A stretch of 63,831 nt of DNA, counting the filler, from an uncultured bacterium (GTDB taxonomy: Bacteria > B130-G9): assembly GCA_965372715.1 (NCBI GenBank). It is 3 parts of 3 records of this genome, joined end to end, with 100 filler letters (N's around TTAATTAATTAA, not from the genome) between each part and the next. Parts side by side here need not be neighbours in the genome. Positions count along the whole stretch, not along the records: positions 47,584 to 63,831 come from CBDVDH010000068.1; 2 more parts are not named here. One strand, 5' to 3'. Positions 9,472 to 62,755 of the stretch are shown here, piece by piece (position 1 is the stretch's first letter; every line of letters starts with the position of its first letter). The notes under the pieces were generated by a model that made no database searches, was not told where the DNA came from, and worked only from the letters and a program-made list of their open reading frames with translations. The position numbers and the translations under genes were made by a program.

Positions 9472-9622
9472 TGGAGTGCGGCGGCTTGACACCACCATCT
9501 CATAGATTCCCTTCTTGACCTTTCAGACAGTGATCTGGAGGCCTGGACGCCAATCGACGTAGGGTCGATGCCGCGTCAAGCCGCGGCCAGCCAAAGCGGC
9601 GTCAAGCCGCCGCACTCCGAAA
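9472..9622. repeat. About 150-bp dispersed element with TGGAGTGCGG...CCGCACTCC palindromic ends (REP doublet/MITE), copy 1
   Basis: Interior is the reverse complement of the interior of 60856-61036; a partial third copy starts at 47584. Confidence 0.8.
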
Positions 9623-23878: not shown

Positions 23879-23978
23879 NNNNNNNNNNNNNNNNNNNNNN
23901 NNNNNNNNNNNNNNNNNNNNNNTTAATTAATTAANNNNNNNNNNNNNNNNNNNNNNNNNNNNNNNNNNNNNNNNNNNN
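23879..23978. other. Artificial contig linker (N-run, six-frame stop TTAATTAATTAA, N-run)
   Basis: Same 100-nt structure occurs at 47484-47583. Confidence 0.97.
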
Positions 23979-23980
23979 AT

Positions 23981-47244: not shown

Positions 47245-47483
47245 TTGCCTCCACCCATCCAGAAAGTGCGCAGCCTCGACTAATAGGTTACTCACGTCAG
47301 AGATGTGGTCAACCTTTTTGTAAGGGGGAGTTCTCGTAATCGTACCCGGACCTGCTCGACTGAAGGCGTTCTTCCTGCATCCCTGAAAGGGATTAAGGTG
47401 AGTAGCCGTAGGTGCTAACCTACGGATCAGTCGCGGACAGACTAGCACCTCAGTTCGCCGCGCGGCGACCTGGACATCGCCCT

Positions 47484-47583
47484 NNNNNNNNNNNNNNNNN
47501 NNNNNNNNNNNNNNNNNNNNNNNNNNNTTAATTAATTAANNNNNNNNNNNNNNNNNNNNNNNNNNNNNNNNNNNNNNNNNNNN
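47484..47583. other. Artificial contig linker
   Basis: N-run/TTAATTAATTAA/N-run. Confidence 0.97.
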
Positions 47584-47685
47584 CAATCTATGAGAGGGCG
47601 GTGTCAAGCCACCACCAATGAAAGCGGCGTCAAGCCGCTGCACTCCAAAAGGCCAGAGCCGCCGGCGTCAATCTGATTTTTCGGG
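47584..47685. repeat. Partial copy of the dispersed element at the contig edge
   Basis: Near-identical to 60970-61071. Confidence 0.85.
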
Positions 47686-54377: not shown

Positions 54378-54456
54378 TGTAGGGTAGGCTTTCTAGCCTG
54401 CCATCATTCGTCCCTAGTTGGCGGTTAGCAGTGTAGGGCGGGCTTTCCAGCCTGCC
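54378..54456. repeat. Two tandem GTAG-type REP palindromes
   Basis: GTAGGGTAGGCTTTCTAGCCTGCC and GTAGGGCGGGCTTTCCAGCCTGCC. Confidence 0.75.
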
Positions 54457-54839
54457 AACAACACAAGAGATTAGGCAATACGATCCAGACATCTCATTTG
54501 CCGGCGTGATCGACGTGACGAACCTCGACCGCAAGCGAGACAAGAAGCCCCACATAGTCTAGATCGCGCAGTATTGCTCGTCCACGCTGAAGTTTTCAGG
54601 ACCAAACAAGAGCACGTGGCGGCCCGGATAATCGATGTTTTTCCGAAGAATAATCGAGACTTTTCCGATGATTGGGTGCTCGACGCGAAGGTGGCAGAGG
54701 AGAAGAAGCCTGGCGAATAGCCTTGAGAAGAGCTGGTCGCCATCTCATGTTTGTTGTTCACCAGTTGCCTGTGTTACATTTGGCTCATGCAGGCGGCGTT
54801 GCTCGCGAGTTCTAAACTGAGACTTCTGGGAGGGCATCA

Positions 54840-55063
54840 ATGACGGTCCGGACGTTCACCGCGGTCTTGCACAAGGAAGACGACATCTAGTGGCTGAATG
54901 CCCAGAGGTGGGCACTGTTAGCCAGGGATATACGATTGACGAGGCGATTGAAAACCTGCAGGAGGCAACGGAGCTTTATCTCGAGGAGTTCCCCGCGCGG
55001 GGAATCGACCTTGAGGTATGCGGCTCGAGTCCGTACCGGGGAGGTCAAAGAGGAAGCTCATAG
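54840..55063 (+). pseudogene. HicB-family gene with a 1-nt deletion
   Basis: MTVRTFTAVLHKEDDI* then shifted frame VAECPEVGTVSQGYTIDEAIENLQEATELYLEE. Confidence 0.8.
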
Positions 55064-55178
55064 GTCGTGGACATGTGTGATTAACAGATGAACCGGGCGA
55101 AGCGGTCCCGAGAGTTGATGCATTCCTCGCGGGGCCGTCCTGCCCCGGAAGCAGTGGAGCCAGAGAAGGAGGCCGGAT

Positions 55179-55637
55179 GTGATCAGGGATTTCGAGGCAG
55201 TAAAGAAGCAGCTAAAGGAGCTCGCTAGCATTGTAAACTCATTTTCATCTGAAGCCGTTCAGCTCCGGGTTATTGAATTGGTTTTTGGGATGCAAGATGA
55301 AGAAGAAGTGGGACCCTCACCAGCTGACGAGAAACCCGCTAGGAAGAAACGCACTCCGAAGAAGAAGGCTGGCGTGAAAAAGGAGGGCAGCCCACAAAAG
55401 GCCAGGAAGAAGGCCACTACTGCTAAAGGACCTGCAGTGATTTTGAGTGAGCTAGCCGGGACGGATTTCTTTGAATCTCCGCGAGCCATCAGTGAGATTG
55501 TTGAATACTGCGAAACTAATTATGCGCGCCGCCTCAAGAGCAATCAGTTCTCCCCCAAACTCGGGAGAATGGTGCGTGATGGTGAGTTGACTAGAGAGAA
55601 GAACGCCAATGGCCAATATGAGTATAAGAAAGCATGA
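55179..55637 (+). CDS. Hypothetical protein: N-terminal helices, Lys-rich linker, C-terminal wHTH-like domain
   Basis: GGAGG RBS; FFESPRAISEI..LGRMVRDGELTR..GQYEY. Confidence 0.75.
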   Translation: MIRDFEAVKKQLKELASIVNSFSSEAVQLRVIELVFGMQDEEEVGPSPADEKPARKKRTPKKKAGVKKEGSPQKARKKATTAKGPAVILSELAGTDFFESPRAISEIVEYCETNYARRLKSNQFSPKLGRMVRDGELTREKNANGQYEYKKA

Positions 55638-56424
55638 CAAATTGTTGGAGAGCGCGCTTGCAGCGATTGGCAAGAAGTTCCGCACGCGAATCATCACATC
55701 TTACCTAGACCTCAAGAGGAATTACGTGGAAAGCCGCTACGAATCTGCGGGCCTTTCCGCGGGGAAGTTCTGCGAGATCGTTTTTCGACATTTGCAGAAT
55801 ACCATCACGGGCACATATGTGCCGTTCAACCAGAAAATCAAGAATTTCGCGGATGCATGTCGAAAGCTGATCGCAGCCCCGAGTGGGGCCGGAACCGAGT
55901 CAGAGCGCGTGATCCTGCCCCGCGCTTTGGTCTTTCTATACACGATGAGGAACAAGAGAGGCATTGGCCATGTCGGCGGCGATGTCGACGCAAATGAAAT
56001 CGACGCTGTCGTGATTGCCCGAACAGCGGATTGGGTATTATGCGAGCTCATACGGATCAATCACCGGATGTCACTCGAGGAGGCTCAAGACCTTGTTGAC
56101 TGCATATCCATTCGTCAAATACCAGCCATCTGGGAGGTTGGAGGAAAGAAGCGGGTCCTATTGGATGGGCTTGCGGCAAAGGACCAGGTCCTTCTTCTGC
56201 TCTATTCCTGTCCCGATTTCGCCGTGTTAGTTGAGGATCTGTGTGATTGGATTGAATACTCCAATCTATCTGTTTTCAGAAGCAATGTCCTGGGGAATCT
56301 GCACACGAATCGACTCCTTGAGCACGACAGAGATGCAGACTACGTCGTTCTGTCACCAAAGGGCGCGAGATGGGTGGAGGAGAACCTACTCAATGGGGGG
56401 GACACGCTGGGTAGCCGTGCGTAG
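55609..56424 (+). CDS. HEPN/Abi_C-like protein with C-terminal wHTH-like domain
   Basis: AGKFCE and RNKRGIGH (R-x6-H); C-terminal LGNLH..LSPKG; overlaps the upstream gene. Confidence 0.7.
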   Translation: MANMSIRKHDKLLESALAAIGKKFRTRIITSYLDLKRNYVESRYESAGLSAGKFCEIVFRHLQNTITGTYVPFNQKIKNFADACRKLIAAPSGAGTESERVILPRALVFLYTMRNKRGIGHVGGDVDANEIDAVVIARTADWVLCELIRINHRMSLEEAQDLVDCISIRQIPAIWEVGGKKRVLLDGLAAKDQVLLLLYSCPDFAVLVEDLCDWIEYSNLSVFRSNVLGNLHTNRLLEHDRDADYVVLSPKGARWVEENLLNGGDTLGSRA

Positions 56425-56459
56425 AACGCAAGGGGCAATGTCAGACCGCCGAACGCCCA

Positions 56460-57353
56460 TCACGGCTTCTTATGTAGCTTGACGATGAGGTCGGCGAGGA
56501 GGCCCAGGACACCGATGATGACGCCGGTCAGGAGGAGTACTATCTCGGACTCCTTGAAGTCATGCAGGACGAACGAGTCGTAAAGACCTTTGATGACGCC
56601 GAGCATGAGGAAGAAGACGGACAGCGGCACAAACACCTTGAGCGGCTTGAAATACATGACGGTCTTGAGGATGAACATCACGTAGCTGTAGGAATCGGCT
56701 ATCGGGTGGAACGTCGATCTGCCCGTGCGCTTCCTATAGTCAATCGGAATGAACGCGACATCCCGCTTCTCGCTCAAAAAGGCCACCGTCATCGTTCCGA
56801 CCCAGGAATGTCCTTCAGGGGTGATGTTGAGGTATCGCATGACGAGGTCGCGCCTCATGGCCCTGAAGCCAGAGTTGAGGTCCTCGATGTGCTCGGACGT
56901 GATGTATTCCGCAAGCCGGCGGATTATCGTCTTGACGGGCTTGCGAAGCCATCGAACCGTCCCTGCCTCCTTTATCCTCGCGCCGACGACCATGTCGTAT
57001 CCCTCGTCAATCTTTGCGAGCAGTCTGGGGATATCCTCGTTCGGATAGGTATTGTCTGCGTCGGTCATGACGATGATCTCACCCCTGGCAGCCTTGACGC
57101 CCCTGGTTCGCGCTACACCGACACCCTTGTTCTCGGGTAGCCGTAGGACGCTGACGCCCATCGCCTCCGCCAGTTCGCCCGTCCCGTCCGTTGAGCCGTC
57201 ATCGACGACGATTACCTCGTAGCTGTAGCCCGACGATTCCATGGCGGTGATTATCGCCTCAATGTCAGCCTCGATAGCCGCCGCCTCGTTGAACGCGGGC
57301 ACGATTATGCTGACGTAAACATCTGTATCGACCACTCGTCGCGATCCCTTCAT
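56460..57353 (-). CDS. GT2 family glycosyltransferase
   Basis: VDDGSTD, TDADNTY, DLNSGFR, two C-terminal TM segments. Confidence 0.92.
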   Translation of the reverse strand: MKGSRRVVDTDVYVSIIVPAFNEAAAIEADIEAIITAMESSGYSYEVIVVDDGSTDGTGELAEAMGVSVLRLPENKGVGVARTRGVKAARGEIIVMTDADNTYPNEDIPRLLAKIDEGYDMVVGARIKEAGTVRWLRKPVKTIIRRLAEYITSEHIEDLNSGFRAMRRDLVMRYLNITPEGHSWVGTMTVAFLSEKRDVAFIPIDYRKRTGRSTFHPIADSYSYVMFILKTVMYFKPLKVFVPLSVFFLMLGVIKGLYDSFVLHDFKESEIVLLLTGVIIGVLGLLADLIVKLHKKP

Positions 57354-57478: not shown

Positions 57479-57537
57479 GTAGGGGCGGTGCTTGCCCCGC
57501 CCTAAAGGCAGAAGGGTGCGGCAAGCAGCACCCCTAC
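57479..57537. repeat. GTAG-type REP doublet
   Basis: GTAGGGGCGGTGCTTGCCCCGCCC ... GGGTGCGGCAAGCAGCACCCCTAC. Confidence 0.8.
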
Positions 57538-57582
57538 AGCATTAGGGATGGCCGGACATTCGCCGCGTCAGGCCGCGGCGAG

Positions 57583-57615
57583 TGAAAGCGGTGCCTGGTC
57601 ACCGCACTCCAAAGC
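57583..57615. repeat. Left 33-bp inverted repeat bounding the terminase cassette
   Basis: TGAAAGCGGTGCCTGGTCACCGCACTCCAAAGC; reverse complement matches 60856-60888 at 32 of 33 positions. Confidence 0.85.
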
Positions 57616-57835
57616 TGTCAATACAAGCGGCAGCAAGTCGAGGTGTCATGGTGAAACCGCGTACATGAGTTGTTGGGCAGAGCGTTGACGTATCAACGCC
57701 TTGACCGCAGTGCGGGACCCGGCCCGAAAAAAACGAGAATCTCGGCCAACAAAACGGGGATTTTCCGACGTTTTCACGGACATTGGTGAATAAGTTTGTG
57801 GTGCGAATGATGAACAAGCGACGAGCGAGGTTTGA

Positions 57836-58324
57836 ATGAGTTGCAGCGAGCGGGACGAGGCGAACGGCAGCGGCAAGAACGGCCTTATGGCCAAGTGGCA
57901 GACACTTCTGAGAGTAGTTGAGCGGCGGTTCAAGGCGGCGATAGCAAAGGAGGAGAAGAACGGGCGGCTCAGGCCCGAGACCGAGAAGACGGTCGCGACA
58001 TACATAAAGACACTCCAGGCGTTTGCAAAGGAGGTCAAGCAGATTGAGGAGAATGGCGAGGGGGACGGCGCAGCGGCGAGGGAGGTTGCTGAGCACCTGT
58101 GGACACTTTCGCTCTCCAAGCGAGACAAGAGCGCAATCGCGTCGGTCCTGAAGGAGCTGAATCTACCAGTGGGCAAACGACCCGGCATAAGAGGTGGCAG
58201 ATCACGTGAGCAAAACCAAAACGATCAGAAGATACAGCAAGGAAGAGCGGATCAAAGAAGGCTTTCGTTCGATGAACCCGACGACGAGAGTGAGGATGGC
58301 CATGGCGCTTTGGGGTCTTCTTGA
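57836..58324 (+). CDS. Hypothetical charged helical protein, putative terminase small subunit
   Basis: GAGG RBS; lies directly upstream of and overlaps TerL; assignment is positional only. Confidence 0.5.
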   Translation: MSCSERDEANGSGKNGLMAKWQTLLRVVERRFKAAIAKEEKNGRLRPETEKTVATYIKTLQAFAKEVKQIEENGEGDGAAAREVAEHLWTLSLSKRDKSAIASVLKELNLPVGKRPGIRGGRSREQNQNDQKIQQGRADQRRLSFDEPDDESEDGHGALGSS

Positions 58325-60137
58325 GGGCTCAAGCACCGAGTTCCTGGAGATTCAGCGGAGCATCTTCTGGGACCCCGTCTATCAAAGGCCCCCGTGTGAC
58401 ATGGAGGAGTTCCTACTTTCAAAGGACTATCTGGGTCTCACCGACGCGGCAGACCGGCCTTATGTCCACCAGCGGCTGATGCAGCTGCTTGTCCTGACCG
58501 ACGACGACGCGATCAGGGAGATATACCTCTGCCTGGGCAAGGATTCTGGCAAATCGTTCTTCGCGGCGTGCATGGCTTGCCGAATGGTCTATGTTTTGTC
58601 GTGCCTCAGGCCGTCGCCGCAGCACGCCTTGCCGAACATCGCCCCGGGCTCTGGAATCCAGATCATAAACCTCGCAACCGACAACCAGCAAGCAATGCGC
58701 TCCGTTTTCAAAGAGCTCGAGATCAAGATCAGCGGCAAGGCCGGCAGAGGCCCCTCAAGATGGTTCAGTCGATTTGGCTTCGAGAAGCGTGTCGATAGAT
58801 TCGTTTTTCCGAACAGTATAGAGGTCATCTGCGGTCATTCCCGGGCCGAAGCCTGGCTCGGCGCCAACACGATACTCGGGACCATTGACGAGGCGTCGTA
58901 TTTCATTGAGGCGAGAAACAGGCGCCTCGATGAGAGCGGCTACCCGACCAGCCTTGCCGAGAAGAACTACAACGCGTTCTACGGCAGTTGCAGGACGCGG
59001 TTCCCCAACCACTACAAGATCATCCTGATCTCGTCGCCCAAACACCAGGCCGATTTCCTATTCCGCAAGATCAATCAGACGAGGCGATCTGGTAGCCCGG
59101 TTGACGTCGATTCAGTTCAGCTCCGAGCGTCCTATCCGGAGCGCAAATCGGCTGATACAACACGCGTGAGACAGGCTGGGCTTGACAAATACGACAGCGG
59201 ATTCGTCGCGTTTATCGATGGCTCGCGCCTCGCGGTTCAGGCGCCGTCGTGGGAGCTGAAGGACGACGAGACGATTCTCGACTACGAGGACGATTTCAAG
59301 AACAACCCGATAATGGCAGCGAGGGACTTCGGGGCGCAGCCGCATCTTACGGAGTCACCGTACTTCGAGTTCGACCGGCTGGAGCACTGCATCGACTGCA
59401 ATCGCAAGGCGCCGCTGGCGTTCTTGAGCGCGCCTGGGGAGCCTGAGATGGACGTTCCCGAGTCGGTCTTGATGCAGAAGAGGCGCCTTTCGTGCGAGTT
59501 GTCAGGCCATCCCGACCGGGACTACTTCGCCCACATCGATTTCGCGACGGGCGGTAAGTTCGGCAGGGGCGACGCCTGCGGGTTCGCTCTCGGCCACGCG
59601 CAGGAGGCGATTGGTCAGGGCGGACAGCCGTTCTATCGGGTTTTCTTCGACCTTGTTACGAGGTTCCAATATGCCGACGGCAGGCCGGTTGATGCCGAGG
59701 ACCTGTGCGACTTCGTGCAGTTCCTCAAAGCAGGAAAAGGCGAGTTCAGGCCTGCGAGGCGCCTCACATCCTGGGAGACGCACGATGGCTCGGGGTTTTC
59801 TCGGCTGTCAGTGAGCATCGACGGCTTTAACCGCGAGCTCCTCTCGCAGCTGCTCACGAAGCGCGGCGTGAGCGTTGATTACTTTTCTCCGGACAAGAGC
59901 AGGGATTGCTGGCAGATTGCCGAGTATGCCCTTTACAAGGGCTGGGTATCGCTGTATCCGCATCCAATTCTTGAGGCGGAGATCAAGATGCTTCAAGTAA
60001 CCGACAGCGGCATCCCGGACCACCCACCGCACGGCTTCAAAGACATGCTCGACGCGGTCGTAGCGGTCATCTACCGGGCGCTCACAACAGCTCGGGCGAA
60101 ATCGGCAGGACGCGGGTATCAGGGCGTCAAAGGATAG
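58194..60137 (+). CDS. Phage-type terminase large subunit
   Basis: Walker A LGKDSGKS, Walker B TIDEAS, coupling motif ISSP, nuclease HIDFA..GDA..SIDG..DHP..KDMLDA; true start may be ATG 58296 or 58302. Confidence 0.85.
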   Translation: MADHVSKTKTIRRYSKEERIKEGFRSMNPTTRVRMAMALWGLLEGSSTEFLEIQRSIFWDPVYQRPPCDMEEFLLSKDYLGLTDAADRPYVHQRLMQLLVLTDDDAIREIYLCLGKDSGKSFFAACMACRMVYVLSCLRPSPQHALPNIAPGSGIQIINLATDNQQAMRSVFKELEIKISGKAGRGPSRWFSRFGFEKRVDRFVFPNSIEVICGHSRAEAWLGANTILGTIDEASYFIEARNRRLDESGYPTSLAEKNYNAFYGSCRTRFPNHYKIILISSPKHQADFLFRKINQTRRSGSPVDVDSVQLRASYPERKSADTTRVRQAGLDKYDSGFVAFIDGSRLAVQAPSWELKDDETILDYEDDFKNNPIMAARDFGAQPHLTESPYFEFDRLEHCIDCNRKAPLAFLSAPGEPEMDVPESVLMQKRRLSCELSGHPDRDYFAHIDFATGGKFGRGDACGFALGHAQEAIGQGGQPFYRVFFDLVTRFQYADGRPVDAEDLCDFVQFLKAGKGEFRPARRLTSWETHDGSGFSRLSVSIDGFNRELLSQLLTKRGVSVDYFSPDKSRDCWQIAEYALYKGWVSLYPHPILEAEIKMLQVTDSGIPDHPPHGFKDMLDAVVAVIYRALTTARAKSAGRGYQGVKG

Positions 60138-60262
60138 GGGTAAGTGGGGGACAAAAGGAAAAAAGGATAAAGGGAAAAAAGGACAACGCGCCAGTTTCCC
60201 GTAGGGGCGGTTCACGAACCGCCCTCTGAGGACACAAGGCAAACGGACACGGGGAGAGCACG

Positions 60263-60436
60263 ATGAACAGGAACACGAGGAAGAAACAACGCCTTTTGAG
60301 GCTCTGTCGCAAATACGGCTACCACGAGACAGCGTCGATTCTGAAGACGCGAATCGAGAGAGCAAGGCGTGCTCAGATGGGGGATGACACGCCGATTCTT
60401 CATAACCTTACCCAGCAGGAGGATGCGCCGAGATGA
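60263..60436 (+). CDS. 57-aa basic hypothetical protein (below the ORF-track cutoff)
   Basis: GGGGAG RBS; MNRNTRKKQRLLRLCRKYG...EDAPR; ATGA overlap with the next gene. Confidence 0.6.
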   Translation: MNRNTRKKQRLLRLCRKYGYHETASILKTRIERARRAQMGDDTPILHNLTQQEDAPR

Positions 60437-60846
60437 CGATATGCACCGAGTGTGAGAAGCGGGACACGTGCACCGAGCTCTGCGACAGGGTCCGTAAAAT
60501 GACGTACGGCGGTGGCAAGAAACGAAAACGCAGAACATATCCCGTCGATTTCCAGACGTTTGAGGCCAAATCGACCGCGGAGCTCAACCGGTTTCAGATC
60601 GAGTCTCTTCACGCGATAAGTTACCGGCCGATCGAGAAGATCGAGCTTCGCGTCCTGCTGGAGCAGATTCTGGCATTACTCTCCGTTGGCCAGCGCTTCG
60701 TGTTCGTAAGGAAGATGGAAGGCTACACCAACCGCGAGATCGCGGACCTGACGGGCTTGAGCGAGAAGGCTATCGAGCAGCGCCACACCCGCGCCCGCAA
60801 GCGCCTCAAGCGTGTCCTCAGCAGAATGAACGGGGATTTGAGGTAG
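60433..60846 (+). CDS. Sigma-70 region 4-type HTH regulator with N-terminal Cys4 motif
   Basis: C-x2-C-x5-C-x3-C; LSVGQRFVF..EGYTNREIADLTGLS..RARKRL; no region 2. Confidence 0.8.
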   Translation: MTICTECEKRDTCTELCDRVRKMTYGGGKKRKRRTYPVDFQTFEAKSTAELNRFQIESLHAISYRPIEKIELRVLLEQILALLSVGQRFVFVRKMEGYTNREIADLTGLSEKAIEQRHTRARKRLKRVLSRMNGDLR

Positions 60847-60855
60847 GTTTTGGCC

Positions 60856-61071
60856 GCTTTGGAGTGCGGTGACCTGGCACCGCTTTCATTTGCCGGGGCC
60901 TCACGGGGCATCGACCCTATGTCGATTGGCGTCCAGGCCTCAGGACCACCGTCTGAAAGGTCAAGAAGGCAATCTATGAGATGGTGGTGTCAAGCCACCA
61001 CCAATGAAAGCGGCGTCATGCCGCCGCAATCCAAAAGGCCAGAGCCGCCGGCGTCAATCTGATTTTTCGGG
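60856..61071. repeat. Full copy of the dispersed element; its first 33 bp form the right boundary repeat of the terminase cassette
   Basis: Matches 9472-9622 (inverted) and 47584-47685 (direct). Confidence 0.85.
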
Positions 61072-61117
61072 TTCGCGCACTCTTGCCGCGTGAGGCGCCG
61101 TTTGGTATTCTTGCGGT

Positions 61118-62755
61118 ATGGAGCCGTTCGACTCGACTGAAAGTGAGAATAGCGCGGCGAGGAACAGGTGGGTTCTGCTGGCCATCATTGGCGTCGCGGC
61201 CGGGATATTCCTGGCGGGAATCCGGAAGGACCTGCCATATTCGCACGAGAGCGACGAGAACCTCTACGTGGAGCGCGCTGTGCGAATGGCCGCGTCGGGG
61301 GAACTCAATCCGCGCTGGTTCGGCAACCCCGGCTCGACAGTGCTCTACCCGCTTATTGGCCTATTTCACGCATGGCATGCGATAGAATACGGCGGCAGCT
61401 TCCTTTGCGCAGACAACAACATCATCTCAGCATTCACGTCTGATCAATCCCAATTCTACCTGCTGGGCAGGCTGCTCACGGTATGTTACGCGCTTCTTTC
61501 TGTGCTGATGACGTATCTGGTGGGGCGAAGGCTCTTCGGGGAGCGGGTTGCTTTAGTCGGGGCGTGGTTCTCGATCCTGTCCCCTCTCGTCGTGTATTAC
61601 GCCCAGGTTGTCCGAACTGACCTGGCAGGCTCGTTCTTTGGGATGCTGAGCCTATGGCTCATGCTGCGGCTCTATGACCAGCCATCAACCCAAAACCAGC
61701 TGCTCGCTGGGCTTTCGATTGGGTTCTCCGTTGCGACGAGGTATTTCCTGGTCACCCTGGTTCCCATCCTGATAGCGATCGACGTGCTGGTCGTGCGTCA
61801 GAGCCGTCGGAATCAGGACAGACCACCAGCCTCCCGGCGCACAATCGCCGTCGGACTCCTTGCCGTTTTGCTGGGGTTCGCCATTACCACACCTTTTTTT
61901 GTCCTGGACCTATCGACAGCGCTGACAGACCTTACACGCGAGGCTCGGCCGAGGCATTTCGGCGCTGACGGCCTCTCTCCGGCGGGCAATCTGACCTGGT
62001 ACGTGACGAAAGCGATACCAGCGAGCATCTCGTTGCCGCTTGCCATACTCGCCGCAATTGGCGTGTTGCTTGTCCTGCTTCGGCGCCGCCCCGAGCAGCT
62101 GCTGGTCCTGGGCTTCGTGGTGGTCTTCGTGCTCTCGACCAGCCTGTCCCGCCTGCACTGGAATCGCTGGATGATCCAGATATTCCCGATTCTGTGCCTC
62201 CTGGCCGCGGAAACGATCTGTGGGGCGTCTTCACGGTTATCCAGTCTCTTTCGACTCGGGCCTACGTATCAACGCGTTCTGTTGTGTCTTCTGATCGCGC
62301 TCACCTCAGTCCTGCCTCTTCACGACCTGCTGCTATACGAGGTCAGTGAGACAGCCACCAGCACGAGAATACTGGCCCGAGAGTGGATCATAAAGAACCT
62401 GCCGCCGGGAACTAAAGTAGCGTATGAACCGTTCTCTGTGCCGCTTAGCGGCACCGACCTGTTAGTCTTTGGCCCGAGGGTGCTGGCCGCACGGCGCAGT
62501 TTGCTGGACTACTATCGCACTGGATACCGCTATCTGGTGGTCAGTAGCGGCGTCTATGACAGGTTCTTTGCCGAATCCAAGCGCTATCCAAGGGAAGTCG
62601 CGTTTTACAGGACGCTCTTCGCCGAGGGACATCTCGTCAGAGAACTCAATCCTTCACTCCTCAGAGGCGGACCAACGATACGCATCTACAGGCTGGGAGG
62701 GCCGCTGCCCACCGAGCAACTGAATCAGCAGAGCGATAAGGAAGTACAGAAATGA
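61118..62755 (+). CDS. GT39/ArnT-like membrane glycosyltransferase
   Basis: HESDE, LNPRWF, GRLL, RTD; many TM segments; AREWI..NLP. Confidence 0.82.
   Translation: MEPFDSTESENSAARNRWVLLAIIGVAAGIFLAGIRKDLPYSHESDENLYVERAVRMAASGELNPRWFGNPGSTVLYPLIGLFHAWHAIEYGGSFLCADNNIISAFTSDQSQFYLLGRLLTVCYALLSVLMTYLVGRRLFGERVALVGAWFSILSPLVVYYAQVVRTDLAGSFFGMLSLWLMLRLYDQPSTQNQLLAGLSIGFSVATRYFLVTLVPILIAIDVLVVRQSRRNQDRPPASRRTIAVGLLAVLLGFAITTPFFVLDLSTALTDLTREARPRHFGADGLSPAGNLTWYVTKAIPASISLPLAILAAIGVLLVLLRRRPEQLLVLGFVVVFVLSTSLSRLHWNRWMIQIFPILCLLAAETICGASSRLSSLFRLGPTYQRVLLCLLIALTSVLPLHDLLLYEVSETATSTRILAREWIIKNLPPGTKVAYEPFSVPLSGTDLLVFGPRVLAARRSLLDYYRTGYRYLVVSSGVYDRFFAESKRYPREVAFYRTLFAEGHLVRELNPSLLRGGPTIRIYRLGGPLPTEQLNQQSDKEVQK

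Follow-up and report, generated by a model that had tools for sequence, protein, structure and literature searches.

A terminase and putative sigma-region-4 regulator locus conserved across Coatesbacteria and unlinked from a portal–capsid cluster: a possible part of a GTA-like particle system

Organization of the terminase locus

The window analysed here, a 63.8-kb stretch of DNA, carries a cassette of four genes in the same (+) orientation, encoding o162, the large terminase TerL, o57 and a Cys4/sigma-4 protein (Table 1). ORF calling and the matches of the flanking genes recovered the arrangement described in the initial annotation, four co-oriented ORFs between two host glycosyltransferases. 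Its statement that the window holds no other phage genes also stood as far as the scans reached: the neighbours at 51.4–62.7 kb had only cellular or HicB-like matches in Pfam and PHROG profile scans, and none of the 10 head-cluster proteins described below had a tblastn match in the window, 57.8 kb of which lie upstream of the cassette. GC content is host-like, with no compositional anomaly.

Table 1. Features of the terminase locus, with positions along the window
Feature	Position	Strand	Remarks
GT2 glycosyltransferase	56460-57353	-	Left flank; PF00535, E 4.7e-35
REP-like double-hairpin repeat, left copy	57562-57624	.	Dispersed family
Conserved non-coding leader/promoter region	57715-57835	+	Alignment of 8 orthologous upstream regions
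o162, 162-aa helical/charged protein	57836-58324	+	ORF; 3' end overlaps TerL start
TerL, large terminase	58272-60137	+	N-terminal ATPase and C-terminal RNase-H-like nuclease; profile, motif, Foldseek and tblastn evidence
o57, 57-aa basic protein	60263-60436	+	Conserved motif LRLCxKYGY; stop overlaps sigma-4 gene start
Cys4/sigma-4 protein, 137 aa	60433-60846	+	Start overlaps o57 stop; PF08281, E 8.4e-12
REP-like double-hairpin repeat, right copy	60847-60909	.	Directly 3' of sigma-4 stop
PMT_2-type glycosyltransferase	61118-62755	+	Right flank; PF13231, E 1.3e-12

The two REP-like copies form a 63-nt inverted pair (86% complementary), and the right one contains a terminator-like hairpin (60866-60883). 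Further copies lie at 9570, 47598 and 60984 of the window. We rejected the pair as the ends of the cassette because the repeat family is dispersed and the left copy is missing in one of the related genomes (G001, see below).

The large terminase

With the ATG start at 58272, which is also used by database homologs, TerL has 621 aa; an alternative GTG start at 58194 would give a protein of 647 aa (58194-60137). TerL had no match in the local Pfam-A (Terminase families included) and NCBIfam libraries; PF27249, with which it is tagged in the databases, is absent from the local Pfam-A library. It matched PHROG 2, 'terminase large subunit' (E 2.7e-12), and a tblastn search of 50,697 phage records gave matches in 327, of which 224 extend over 80% or more of the query; every one of the 15 matches listed is annotated as terminase (best E 4e-34, identity there ∼ 25%). 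In Foldseek searches with a low-confidence structure model (pLDDT 57.5), the best ten PDB matches were large terminases without exception, full-length TerLs being found with E values of 4.8e-9 to 1e-6 and a probability of 1.0, and the nuclease domain aligning with those of G20c and P74-26 at TM 0.61–0.65.

Among 40 relatives, with identity down to 23%, the N-terminal ASCE ATPase always keeps G93 and K94 of Walker A (GKDSGKS; consensus GxxxxGK[ST]) and D206 and E207 of Walker B (hhhhDE), and the nuclease always keeps its acidic residues D423, D517, D591 and D594 (residues counted in the 621-aa form), which confirms the intact Walker A, Walker B and nuclease motifs claimed originally. The triplet S254-S255-P256, which we take to be the coupling motif, is invariant in 11 close homologs. 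Judged from these matches and residues, the cassette TerL is a bona fide, motif-complete large terminase.

Companion genes and upstream region

The o162 protein, helical as read from its sequence, has a conserved core (approximately residues 17–110) and an acidic tail. Orthologs are found in 8/8 loci at 47–96% identity, and in sequence searches its relatives were restricted to the Coatesbacteria clade. Searches of Pfam, PHROG, NCBIfam and PADLOC assigned it to no family and gave no TerS profile match; in the Atlas it has viral neighbours only, and among the named ones a T5 small-terminase family is closest (0.85, a weak lead). By position, o162 is a candidate small terminase (TerS). Orthologs of o57 are likewise present in 8/8 loci, with no family match in Pfam, PHROG or NCBIfam.

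The fourth protein has a Cys4 N-terminus resembling a zinc ribbon, as well as a basic patch and the helix-turn-helix (HTH) of sigma-70 region 4, the −35-binding element. Besides PF08281, region 4 matched PF04545 (E 7.5e-6); the protein also matched PF07638 (E 4.1e-7) and scored 45 bits against TIGR02937 (cut-off 42.9), over profile positions 96–164 of 165 only. No Pfam or NCBIfam family matched region 2, responsible for core binding and −10 recognition, and the match to the NCBIfam entry NF005385, 'positive control sigma-like factor', was weak (E 0.0022, far below the cut-off). A complete sigma factor was rejected on account of the absent region 2 and the N-terminal Cys4 motif. Residues C4, C7, C13 and C17 are kept in 7/7 orthologs and, with the PF08281 match, uphold the Cys4/sigma-4 assignment made at the outset. 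The gene is single-copy in 5/5 genomes, and the homologs found (66–100% identity) are confined to the Coatesbacteria clade. We regard the protein as a candidate dedicated transcription factor.

The leader region carries two AAAACG-type boxes spaced 21 nt and a TTT[C/G]ACGGA block. The 12-mer AAAACGAGAATC at 57730-57741 is invariant and occurs once per TerL locus; the rest of the window and the head-cluster loci have no copy. The region had no match in Rfam, covariation gave no support for an RNA fold, and no sigma-70 consensus promoter was found on the + strand.

Distribution, descent and selection

The phylum Coatesbacteria is sampled by six genomes (G001 to G006), all fragmented MAGs. The TerL query matched 7/60 genomes, comprising 6/6 of the family and 1/54 of the others (a distant match, 29% identity), with one strong match per genome. 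The order o162–TerL–o57–sigma-4 is retained in 5/5 genome contigs long enough to show the whole cassette (that of G005 stops after o57), as well as on the metagenome contigs L031, L032/L034 and L035. The GT2 gene upstream and/or the PMT gene downstream recur with it, the same host flanks being present in at least eight independent assemblies, which argues against a misassembly. TerL has no internal stop in 6/6 genomes, consistent with the lack of decay reported for the window.

The identity of TerL to the window (97% in G001, 79% in G002, 77% in G004, 80% in G006 and 70% in G003) runs close to that of the host protein PurH (94%, 78%, 77%, 78% and 75%, respectively). The supported splits {window, G001} and {G002, G006, G005} are common to the TerL and housekeeping trees, which have no supported conflict. 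Median NG86 dN/dS values, which are rough, as dS is near saturation (median pS 0.48–0.74), were ∼ 0.11 for TerL, 0.087 for the sigma-4 gene, 0.22 for o57 and 0.24 for o162, with PurH at 0.12 and GlyA at 0.049 among the host genes; those of the head genes discussed below were 0.106 (portal), 0.047 (MCP), 0.070 (h286) and 0.045 (h110). By these estimates, all four cassette genes are under purifying selection and their divergence is housekeeping-like. Taken with its distribution, the cassette is no stray remnant and is vertically inherited in Coatesbacteria. The proposal of a domesticated packaging motor is thereby supported by the presence of the cassette in all six sister genomes, its synteny, unrelaxed selection on its four genes and trees that agree with those of the host.

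An unlinked head cluster

In head modules, TerL genes usually, though not obligatorily, adjoin a portal gene. No portal adjoins TerL here; it is encoded at a second locus, found on another contig in all six genomes, together with the major capsid protein (MCP) and eight further genes. The portal (PF05133) was detected in 5/5 genomes searched and the MCP in 6/6, in neither case ever on the contig of TerL; in G002, where TerL occupies 46.3–48.2 kb of a 74.5-kb contig, that contig has no portal or MCP match. Thus, the search for unlinked portal and capsid genes was positive, and the description of the cassette as solitary is right for the window as scanned and wrong genome-wide. For the source genome of the window, we infer the head cluster from G001, the genome with the 97% identical TerL.

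The locus encodes an SPP1-type portal, a 165-aa acidic scaffold-like protein, a 140-aa protein (h140), an HK97-type MCP, five small neck- or tail-like proteins and a DpdA/TGT-like enzyme. Synteny of the 10 genes is kept in G003, G004 and G002, and that of five genes up to the contig end in G006. PHROG profiles matched the portal (E 2.4e-20) and the major head protein (E 1.5e-22), and the only match in a PDB profile search was a major capsid protein (E 0.0026). The five proteins after the MCP had no family match in profile searches. Among the head-cluster proteins, h286 resembles tail-tube families in the Atlas (weak, 0.86–0.88; its structure model, with a pLDDT of 35, is unusable). Pfam searches for tail-sheath (PF04984) and tape-measure (PF10145) proteins gave 0/5 each and are insensitive here, since TerL and the MCP themselves have no Pfam-A match; no lysis gene was recognised. 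Relative to G006, the G002 portal gene has two 1-nt deletions that shift its reading frame; the gene is a pseudogene unless the assembly is in error here.

Genes adjoining the head cluster vary among the four genera, in contrast to those of the cassette, and include variable defence or TA-like genes (e.g. GmrSD, HicB-like, AAA_27/APH). No integrase or replication genes were found among the nearest scanned flanks of either locus, which hold genes of cellular, defence or TA type. The regions upstream of o162 and of the portal gene shared no k-mers (k 7–10, required in at least 4/5 genomes on each side); with no common cis element between them, co-regulation of the two loci is unsupported.

Common origin of the two loci

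The nearest TerL relatives outside the clade (52–57% identity) lie on three phage-like metagenome contigs, and on 3/3 informative ones the gene after TerL is a homolog of h140. One of these contigs, L037, continues with homologs of the MCP (54%), h286, h110 and h169, and another, L036, has PHROG matches among the ORFs upstream. Because TerL adjoins head-gene homologs on these contigs, the cassette and the head locus can be traced to one ancestral module; by this arrangement, the two loci share ancestry. No close TerL relative was found in 2.9 million IMG/VR contigs (best 24%).

Interpretation and alternatives

We consider the cassette to be, with a probability of roughly 0.55, the locus for the packaging genes and their regulator within a domesticated system that is spread over several loci and makes particles resembling gene transfer agents (GTAs). 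Across the clade, packaging and head genes descend vertically under purifying selection, as in a GTA, and modules for replication, integration or lysogeny are missing from the nearest flanks scanned. In 6/6 genomes the two loci are on separate contigs, a dispersal that the GTA definition allows. Of the options first put forward, the dispersed packaging module of an unrecognised GTA is favoured by the conserved, unlinked portal–MCP cluster and its common ancestry with TerL, whereas a motor that diverts helper-phage capsids is left without its premise, as the genomes have capsid genes of their own. The gene content suggests that Coatesbacteria may build their own phage-derived, DNA-carrying particle; we infer particle formation, carriage of host DNA between cells, sigma-4 control of both loci and the role of o162 as TerS.

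Such a system would be spread over two or more unlinked chromosomal loci, inherited vertically and kept under selection. At the terminase locus, a TerS-like o162 would be translationally coupled to TerL, and the 57-aa basic protein to the zinc-ribbon/sigma-region-4 factor. The latter might turn on this locus, and perhaps the head locus, from non-consensus promoters, the conserved operator-like boxes upstream of o162 taking part in the switch. The products of the head locus would assemble into procapsids; o162 and TerL would dock on the portal, the nuclease domain would cut the DNA and the motor would pump it in.

A bolder proposal, which we hold only tentatively and think unlikely, is an independently evolved, phylum-wide split GTA whose DNA cargo is chemically modified by the DpdA-like transglycosylase. 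Here, the terminase motor and its own zinc-ribbon/sigma-4 switch would form one locus and the head operon, ending in the transglycosylase gene, the other, and the exported DNA would receive a 7-deazaguanine base that protects it from restriction in the recipient.

The genes identified so far (TerS-like, TerL, portal, scaffold-like, MCP and a few small neck-sized proteins) could alternatively form a tail-less capsid-and-packaging system for which infecting phages supply the tails, or the induction. It would be comparable to capsid-forming phage satellites but fixed in the chromosome, with the cell producing DNA-filled heads and borrowing what else is needed. Profile searches found no sheath, tape-measure or lysis genes, and a precedent is described in capsid-forming PICIs, which make their own capsids (10.1101/2025.02.11.637232). 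We nevertheless judge this distinctly unlikely: the scanned flanks lack integrase and replication genes, there are two loci and not one island, the presence in 6/6 genomes with host-like divergence differs from the patchy spread of mobile satellites, and the missing tail genes rest on insensitive searches, with h286 a weak tail-tube lead.

It is similarly improbable that both loci are what is left of a single ancient prophage, retained for a host function other than transfer and forming no functional particle. TerL could then serve in DNA processing with its regulator, or the genes could block the packaging of incoming related phages, a cross-interference that is conceivable because the closest outside relatives, with the same head genes, look like phages of this lineage. 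The position of the head cluster amid variable defence and TA-like genes would fit, as would the possibly broken G002 portal next to an intact TerL. Against this, o162, TerL and the sigma-4 protein matched no family among the PADLOC defence models, and housekeeping-strength purifying selection on fourteen genes at two loci, scaffold-like protein and capsid included, would be difficult to account for if selection did not act on an assembled structure.

Finally, the cassette might belong to a temperate phage that is still active or to another mobile element, or an assembly or binning artefact might have lost the remainder of a prophage. This could be suspected from the MAG origin of all genomes, the repeats bracketing the cassette and a report that links putative viruses in cold-seep sediments to Coatesbacteria (PMC8319345). 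It is highly improbable given the recurrent host flanks, a Logan contig that spans the sigma-4 gene to the PMT side, the host-like composition and divergence, the dispersed nature of the repeat and the lack of close relatives in IMG/VR.

Comparison with known systems

GTAs are particles that pack random pieces of host DNA, too little to hold the GTA genes themselves, and deliver them to recipients, with a tail for delivery and lysis functions for release. To our knowledge, experimentally known GTAs come from a handful of lineages only (Alphaproteobacteria, Brachyspira, Desulfovibrio and Methanococcus). If the GTA-like interpretation is true, Coatesbacteria would add another independently domesticated head-and-packaging system, fixed across an uncultured candidate phylum, and more evidence for the repeated taming of phage capsids by cells. 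It would also be a natural case of a terminase and regulator physically uncoupled from the capsid genes; virus-prediction pipelines may score such loci in sediment metagenomes as 'prophages' or 'virus–host links'.

The terminase of RcGTA, the multi-locus GTA of Rhodobacter capsulatus, sits in the main head–tail cluster beside the portal, unlike that of Coatesbacteria, which shares with its regulator a locus apart from portal and capsid. Both systems have phage-derived head and packaging genes, clade-wide vertical descent and several chromosomal loci, with no sequence relationship between their genes in any search made. The RcGTA tail, its lysis functions and the transfer of DNA have been proven; in Coatesbacteria these functions are at most putative. 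The RcGTA 'genome' is described as at least 24 genes at five loci (PMC5026251), with TerS directly upstream of TerL (PMC6854486) and a dedicated activator, GafA, with sigma-factor-like DNA-binding similarity (PMC9638019). In place of GafA, Coatesbacteria have the 137-aa zinc-ribbon and sigma-4 protein.

PBSX, a defective prophage, is one contiguous region, in contrast to the two loci of Coatesbacteria; it packages host DNA and is not known to transfer it. As a domesticated phage-like particle switched on by a co-encoded small sigma-family factor, Xpf, it offers a parallel in which the sigma-4 protein would be the candidate counterpart. Xpf is described as a group IV 'positive control factor' with sigma2 and sigma4 regions, linked to PBSX of Bacillus subtilis (PMC10141391); the Coatesbacteria protein differs in having no region 2.

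Capsid-forming PICIs (cf-PICIs) occur patchily, each as one mobile island that carries attachment sites, an integrase and replication genes. The Coatesbacteria genes share with them a core of TerS-like, TerL, portal, capsid and connector genes and the lack of recognisable tail genes, and differ in their two loci, vertical inheritance in 6/6 genomes, host-like divergence and the absence of an integrase from the scanned flanks, for which reasons we do not class them as a phage satellite (PICI or cf-PICI).

The cassette TerL has the same two-domain fold as the solved terminases (HK97, PhiV-1, Sf6 gp2, D6E, T4 gp17 and the G20c/P74-26 nuclease domain) at 9–16% identity to these structures and ∼ 25% to deposited phages among the matches listed. 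It would provide a compact, motif-complete TerL from a family without solved structures.

Identification of the terminase

Four independent lines of evidence, namely PHROG profiles, deposited phages, invariant residues and model-based PDB matches, identify the long protein of the cassette as a large terminase subunit (TerL), in agreement with the initial annotation. It matches PHROG 2, 'terminase large subunit', with an E-value of 2.7e-12. A tblastn search against 50,697 deposited phage records gave 327 matches, 224 of them covering at least 80% of the query, and the matches listed are all annotated as terminase (best E-value 4e-34, ∼25% identity). Alignment of 40 relatives, with identities down to 23%, showed G93 K94, D206 E207, D423, D517, D591 and D594 to be invariant; these are the Walker A, Walker B and nuclease acidic residues, so that the motifs are indeed intact. 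The ten best PDB matches of the AlphaFold model, which is itself of low confidence (pLDDT 57.5), are all large terminases, including those of HK97, PhiV-1, Sf6, D6E and T4 gp17 (E-values down to 4.8e-9), and the G20c/P74-26 nuclease domain matches the model with a TM of 0.61–0.65. The protein sequence itself had no match in the local Pfam-A or NCBIfam libraries or in a PDB profile search, and Pfam-A assigned a terminase family to none of the 40 relatives (0/40; two single matches at chance level). In a large protein database the family is tagged PF27249, an entry that is not in the local Pfam-A.

Intein/LAGLIDADG domains (PF14528, PF14890) are present in one distant relative, P0011, of 1061 aa, and a genome of another phylum encodes a TerL at 23–29% identity (contig G046:C284, locus L015). 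Weak second PHROG 2 matches (E-values 7e-5 to 2e-4) at G003:C8:10742–11101, G002:C59:22685–23035 and G006:C49:8079–8423 lie in conserved ORFs of 763–780 aa and are limited to the P-loop portion of that profile; these ORFs probably encode another ATPase.

Organization of the cassette

All four co-oriented ORFs claimed for the cassette are found in the ORF list of the window (see the table). Database homologs of TerL start at the equivalent of ATG 58272, which gives a protein of 621 aa, and from either start TerL overlaps the 3' end of o162; the start of the sigma-4 gene likewise overlaps the stop of o57. Because of these overlaps, the cassette reads as two putative translationally coupled pairs, o162/TerL and o57/sigma-4. 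Its GC content (58.0%, against 56.8% for the window) is unremarkable. The cassette is flanked on one side by a minus-strand gene for a GT2 glycosyltransferase (PF00535, E = 4.7e-35) and on the other by one for a PMT_2-type glycosyltransferase (PF13231, E = 1.3e-12).

Genes of the cassette and of the G001 head cluster, with two housekeeping genes for comparison. dN/dS is the median of pairwise Nei–Gojobori estimates, pairs with saturated dS being dropped; synonymous sites are near saturation, so that the values are rough and their direction clear.
Feature	Locus	Position in window	Strand	Family match	dN/dS	Usable pairs
o162 ORF	cassette	57836–58324	+		0.24	25/28
TerL ORF, long frame, 647 aa	cassette	58194–60137	+		0.11	21/28
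o57 ORF	cassette	60263–60436	+		0.22	17/28
sigma-4 ORF, 137 aa	cassette	60433–60846	+		0.087	16/21
Portal, 499 aa (first gene)	head cluster			phrog_64, E 2.4e-20; PF05133, E 2.7e-16	0.106	
165-aa acidic protein (second gene)	head cluster					
140-aa protein (h140)	head cluster			phrog_4368, function unknown		
Major head protein (MCP), 353 aa	head cluster			phrog_3990, E 1.5e-22	0.047	
127-aa protein	head cluster			no family		
239-aa protein (h239)	head cluster			no family	0.31 (maximum)	
169-aa protein (h169)	head cluster			no family		
286-aa protein (h286)	head cluster			no family	0.070	
110-aa protein (h110)	head cluster			no family	0.045	
230-aa TGT/DpdA-like protein (last gene)	head cluster			phrog_887, E 5.9e-43	∼0.13	
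PurH	housekeeping				0.12	10/15
GlyA	housekeeping				0.049	10/10

The sigma-4 protein contains sigma-70 region 4 (PF08281, E = 8.4e-12), a basic patch and four cysteines (C4, C7, C13 and C17) conserved in 7/7 orthologs; it lacks region 2, as the part of the ECF-sigma models that aligns with it begins near profile position 96 of 165. Its gene is single-copy in 5/5 genomes, and its homologs are confined to the Coatesbacteria clade (11 clusters, 66–100% identity). The same clade confines the relatives of o162 (13 clusters, 47–96% identity), a protein with a conserved, probably helical core and a tail of acidic residues that matched no family in four libraries, PADLOC included, and nothing in a PDB profile search. 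In Atlas, a protein-similarity resource, its neighbours are without exception hypothetical proteins of viruses, and the closest one with a name is a T5 small-terminase family (0.85, a weak lead). Position and coupling make o162 a candidate small terminase (TerS); prediction of a TerL–o162 complex scored 0.01, a verdict of 'no answer' in either direction. The fourth product, o57, is a conserved basic peptide. PADLOC matched no defence model to the three cassette proteins searched.

Two variable stretches lie close to the cassette. Between glgC and GT2 the window has a small islet (54400–56440) with three ORFs, one HicB-like and of 57 aa (54890–55063), one lysine-rich and of 152 aa, and one of 271 aa; the same interval in G001, the genome closest to the window, is only ∼0.7 kb. 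Between the sigma-4 gene and PMT there is a 1.7-kb presence/absence polymorphism (L009 11525–13031 in G001, also on L010 and L031; window site 60847–61117). Its 438-aa and 69-aa ORFs occur in G001, in G006 (52% identity), on L031 (57%) and on one Logan contig of run X2, and are missing both in the window and in G002; neither matched Pfam, nor did the 438-aa ORF match PADLOC. The Logan contigs, fragmentary and from four runs, confirm this polymorphism only; a joint that skips 57521–60153 was seen on a single contig with a 28-nt side between repeated hairpins and was taken as a repeat artefact. Matches to sequencing runs comprised 19 DNA rows, none of them with a share above 0.33, and there was no RNA run among the matches listed.

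Vertical descent and selection

G001 stands in here for the genome of the window. A search with TerL gave matches in 7 of 60 genomes: all six of one family and one of the 54 others, the last distantly (29%). These six genomes, from four genera, are the phylum Coatesbacteria as sampled, and NCBI names the TerL homologs Candidatus Coatesbacteria. TerL is thus present in every sister genome (6/6), at 97, 80, 79, 78, 77 and 70% identity and with no internal stops, which bears out the absence of decay noted initially. The order o162–TerL–o57–sigma-4 is kept in 5/5 genome contigs that reach that far (the G005 contig stops after o57) and on metagenome contigs L031, L032/L034 and L035. GT2 upstream and/or PMT downstream recur across genome and metagenome contigs, and misassembly of the locus is therefore excluded.

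The identity range of TerL is that of PurH (94, 78, 77, 78 and 75% in G001, G002, G004, G006 and G003) and GlyA (98, 90, 89, 87 and 85% in G001, G005, G002, G003 and G004), a 104-aa PurH fragment of G005 and a partial GlyA of G004 being left out of the comparison. Two groupings, {window, G001} and {G002, G006, G005}, are shared with support by the maximum-likelihood trees of TerL, sigma-4, portal, MCP, PurH and GlyA, among which there is no supported conflict; at these splits TerL and sigma-4 agree with the two housekeeping genes. Nor is selection relaxed, the dN/dS of TerL being close to that of PurH; the head cluster is under purifying selection of the same strength as the cassette. A value of 0.72 for GT2 was discarded, since a paralog was the best match in some loci. 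Taken together, the case for domestication of the cassette is solid.

A head cluster elsewhere in the genome

The initial annotation saw no other phage genes and called for a search for unlinked ones. The first statement holds for the 57.8 kb of the window upstream of o162, where no head-cluster homologs were found, and fails genome-wide. HK97-type portal (PF04860) and capsid (PF05065) profiles matched 0/5 whole genomes each, and the SPP1-type portal (PF05133) was found in 5/5, always above the curated cut-off and never on the TerL contig. In G001 the portal opens a cluster of ten co-oriented genes. This order is shared with G003, G004 and G002, and G006 shows the first five genes before its contig ends. 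MCP is present in 6/6 genomes at 86–89% identity, and its PDB profile search gave a single match, to a major capsid protein (E = 0.0026). The prediction that the terminase is one module of a dispersed set has thus been borne out.

The flanks of the head cluster vary among the four genera and are, by Pfam, cellular or of defence/TA type (aminotransferase V, GT87, UPF0014, GmrSD, an Ig-repeat giant, AAA_27/APH), with no integrase among those scanned. Relative to G006, the G002 portal (L024 2560–4070) has two single-base deletions, one removing the ATG and the other shifting the frame; these reflect either decay to a pseudogene or an error in the MAG. The DpdA-like gene, resembling queuine tRNA-ribosyltransferases (L021 8406–9098, with orthologs on L022, L023 and L024), has a GmrSD-type restriction enzyme as its neighbour in G002.

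Common origin of the two loci

In G002, TerL lies at 46.3–48.2 kb of a 74.5-kb contig with no portal or MCP match. The sequence data indicate that cassette and head cluster are truly apart in Coatesbacteria, yet of one origin. In the protein library the TerL of Coatesbacteria is separated from the rest by a gap (one representative at 52%, the next at 35%; 1507 relatives at E ≤0.001). A metagenome scan yielded 11 loci, four of which (L036, L037, L038 and L041) have a TerL at 52–58% identity. Three of these contigs reach beyond the TerL stop, and in all three (3/3) TerL is followed by a homolog of the 140-aa head protein (48–51%); on L037, homologs of MCP (54%), h286 (45%), h110 (69%) and h169 (54%) come next. 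The genes for o162, o57 and the sigma-4 protein are absent from all four. Upstream on L036, two of the seven ORFs scanned match PHROGs of unknown function; we infer that all four are phage-like contigs. Because TerL adjoins head-gene homologs on these outside contigs, the TerL and head genes of Coatesbacteria descend from one module, which relatives have kept in one piece. In Coatesbacteria this module is split, and the terminase has gained its clade-specific companions.

Relatives in IMG/VR are only distant for both TerL (24%) and MCP (28%). Among deposited phages h286 and h169 had no match and the portal one weak match. A third locus, sought through a 644-aa protein of L037, was rejected: this protein matched host genes of ComEC type and small nucleases, with homology at the domain level only. 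A 184-aa protein of L037 matched in 0/5 genomes. At L074 534–5371 (G001:C12), a ComEC-like gene of 982 aa precedes two ORFs, one AAA-ATPase-like (373 aa) and one of 223 aa, that form a variable pair, present in G001 and G004 and absent in G002; the ComEC and ATPase readings were made by eye from the sequence.

Regulation and non-coding elements

The ∼120 nt upstream of o162 are strongly conserved in all eight orthologous regions, with an invariant block, AAAACGAGAATC, a second AAAACG box 21 nt downstream of it and then TTT[C/G]ACGGA. An RNA element was rejected for this leader, which has no Rfam match and no covariation. Its + strand has no promoter of sigma-70 consensus type, and the leader may be read as a promoter or operator of non-canonical type. 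Its 12-mer is confined to TerL loci and the conserved motif upstream of the portal to portal loci. No k-mer of 7–10 nt was common to both upstream regions in at least 4/5 genomes per side, and a promoter or operator shared by the two loci was rejected for want of a common element. GTAGGGG, apparently common to both, belongs to a hairpin that recurs throughout the genome and is found 22 times in the window. Since the motifs are locus-specific and no k-mer is common to both sides, co-regulation of cassette and head cluster by the sigma-4 protein is put forward only as a hypothesis.

Intergenic hairpins of the form GTAGGGGCGG...CCGCCC are scattered in the window, with GTAGGGG sites at, for example, 57431, 57479 and 60201. 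An 8-nt word occurs three times directly past the TerL stop (60149–60180). A REP-like dispersed element of ∼50 nt with two hairpins is found at 9570–9622, 47598–47650, 57562–57624, 60847–60909 and 60984–61036, and the cassette is exactly enclosed between the members of one inverted pair of it, 63 nt long and 86% complementary. We rejected this pair as the ends of a mobile element, as it belongs to a dispersed repeat family and the left copy is absent in G001. The N runs at 23879–23979 and 47483–47583, flanked by TTAATTAATTA, are masked or scaffolding stretches.

Comparison with known systems

Sheath (PF04984) and tape measure (PF10145) profiles each matched 0/5 genomes, and no lysis gene was identified. 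The h286 protein weakly resembles tail-tube families in Atlas; its structure model is unusable (pLDDT 35) and its PDB profile search gave no match. Among the papers listed for Coatesbacteria, titles and abstract openings made no mention of gene transfer agents (GTAs) or terminases, and nothing on Coatesbacteria was found among the GTA papers listed. Putative viruses have been linked to Coatesbacteria in cold-seep sediments (PMC8319345), and loci of the cassette or head-cluster type may already have been counted there as 'viral'.

The Coatesbacteria system, a candidate GTA, shares those hallmarks of GTAs that can be tested in silico. [quoted passage not shown] The RcGTA regulator GafA has sigma-factor-like DNA-binding similarity (PMC9638019), and Xpf of PBSX is a small 'positive control factor' with sigma2 and sigma4 (PMC10141391); the sigma-4 protein matches the corresponding NCBIfam model only weakly (E = 0.0022). 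The genes of the Coatesbacteria system have no sequence relationship to those of known GTAs; the system belongs to a candidate phylum and has a terminase that lies away from the portal with a putative private regulator.
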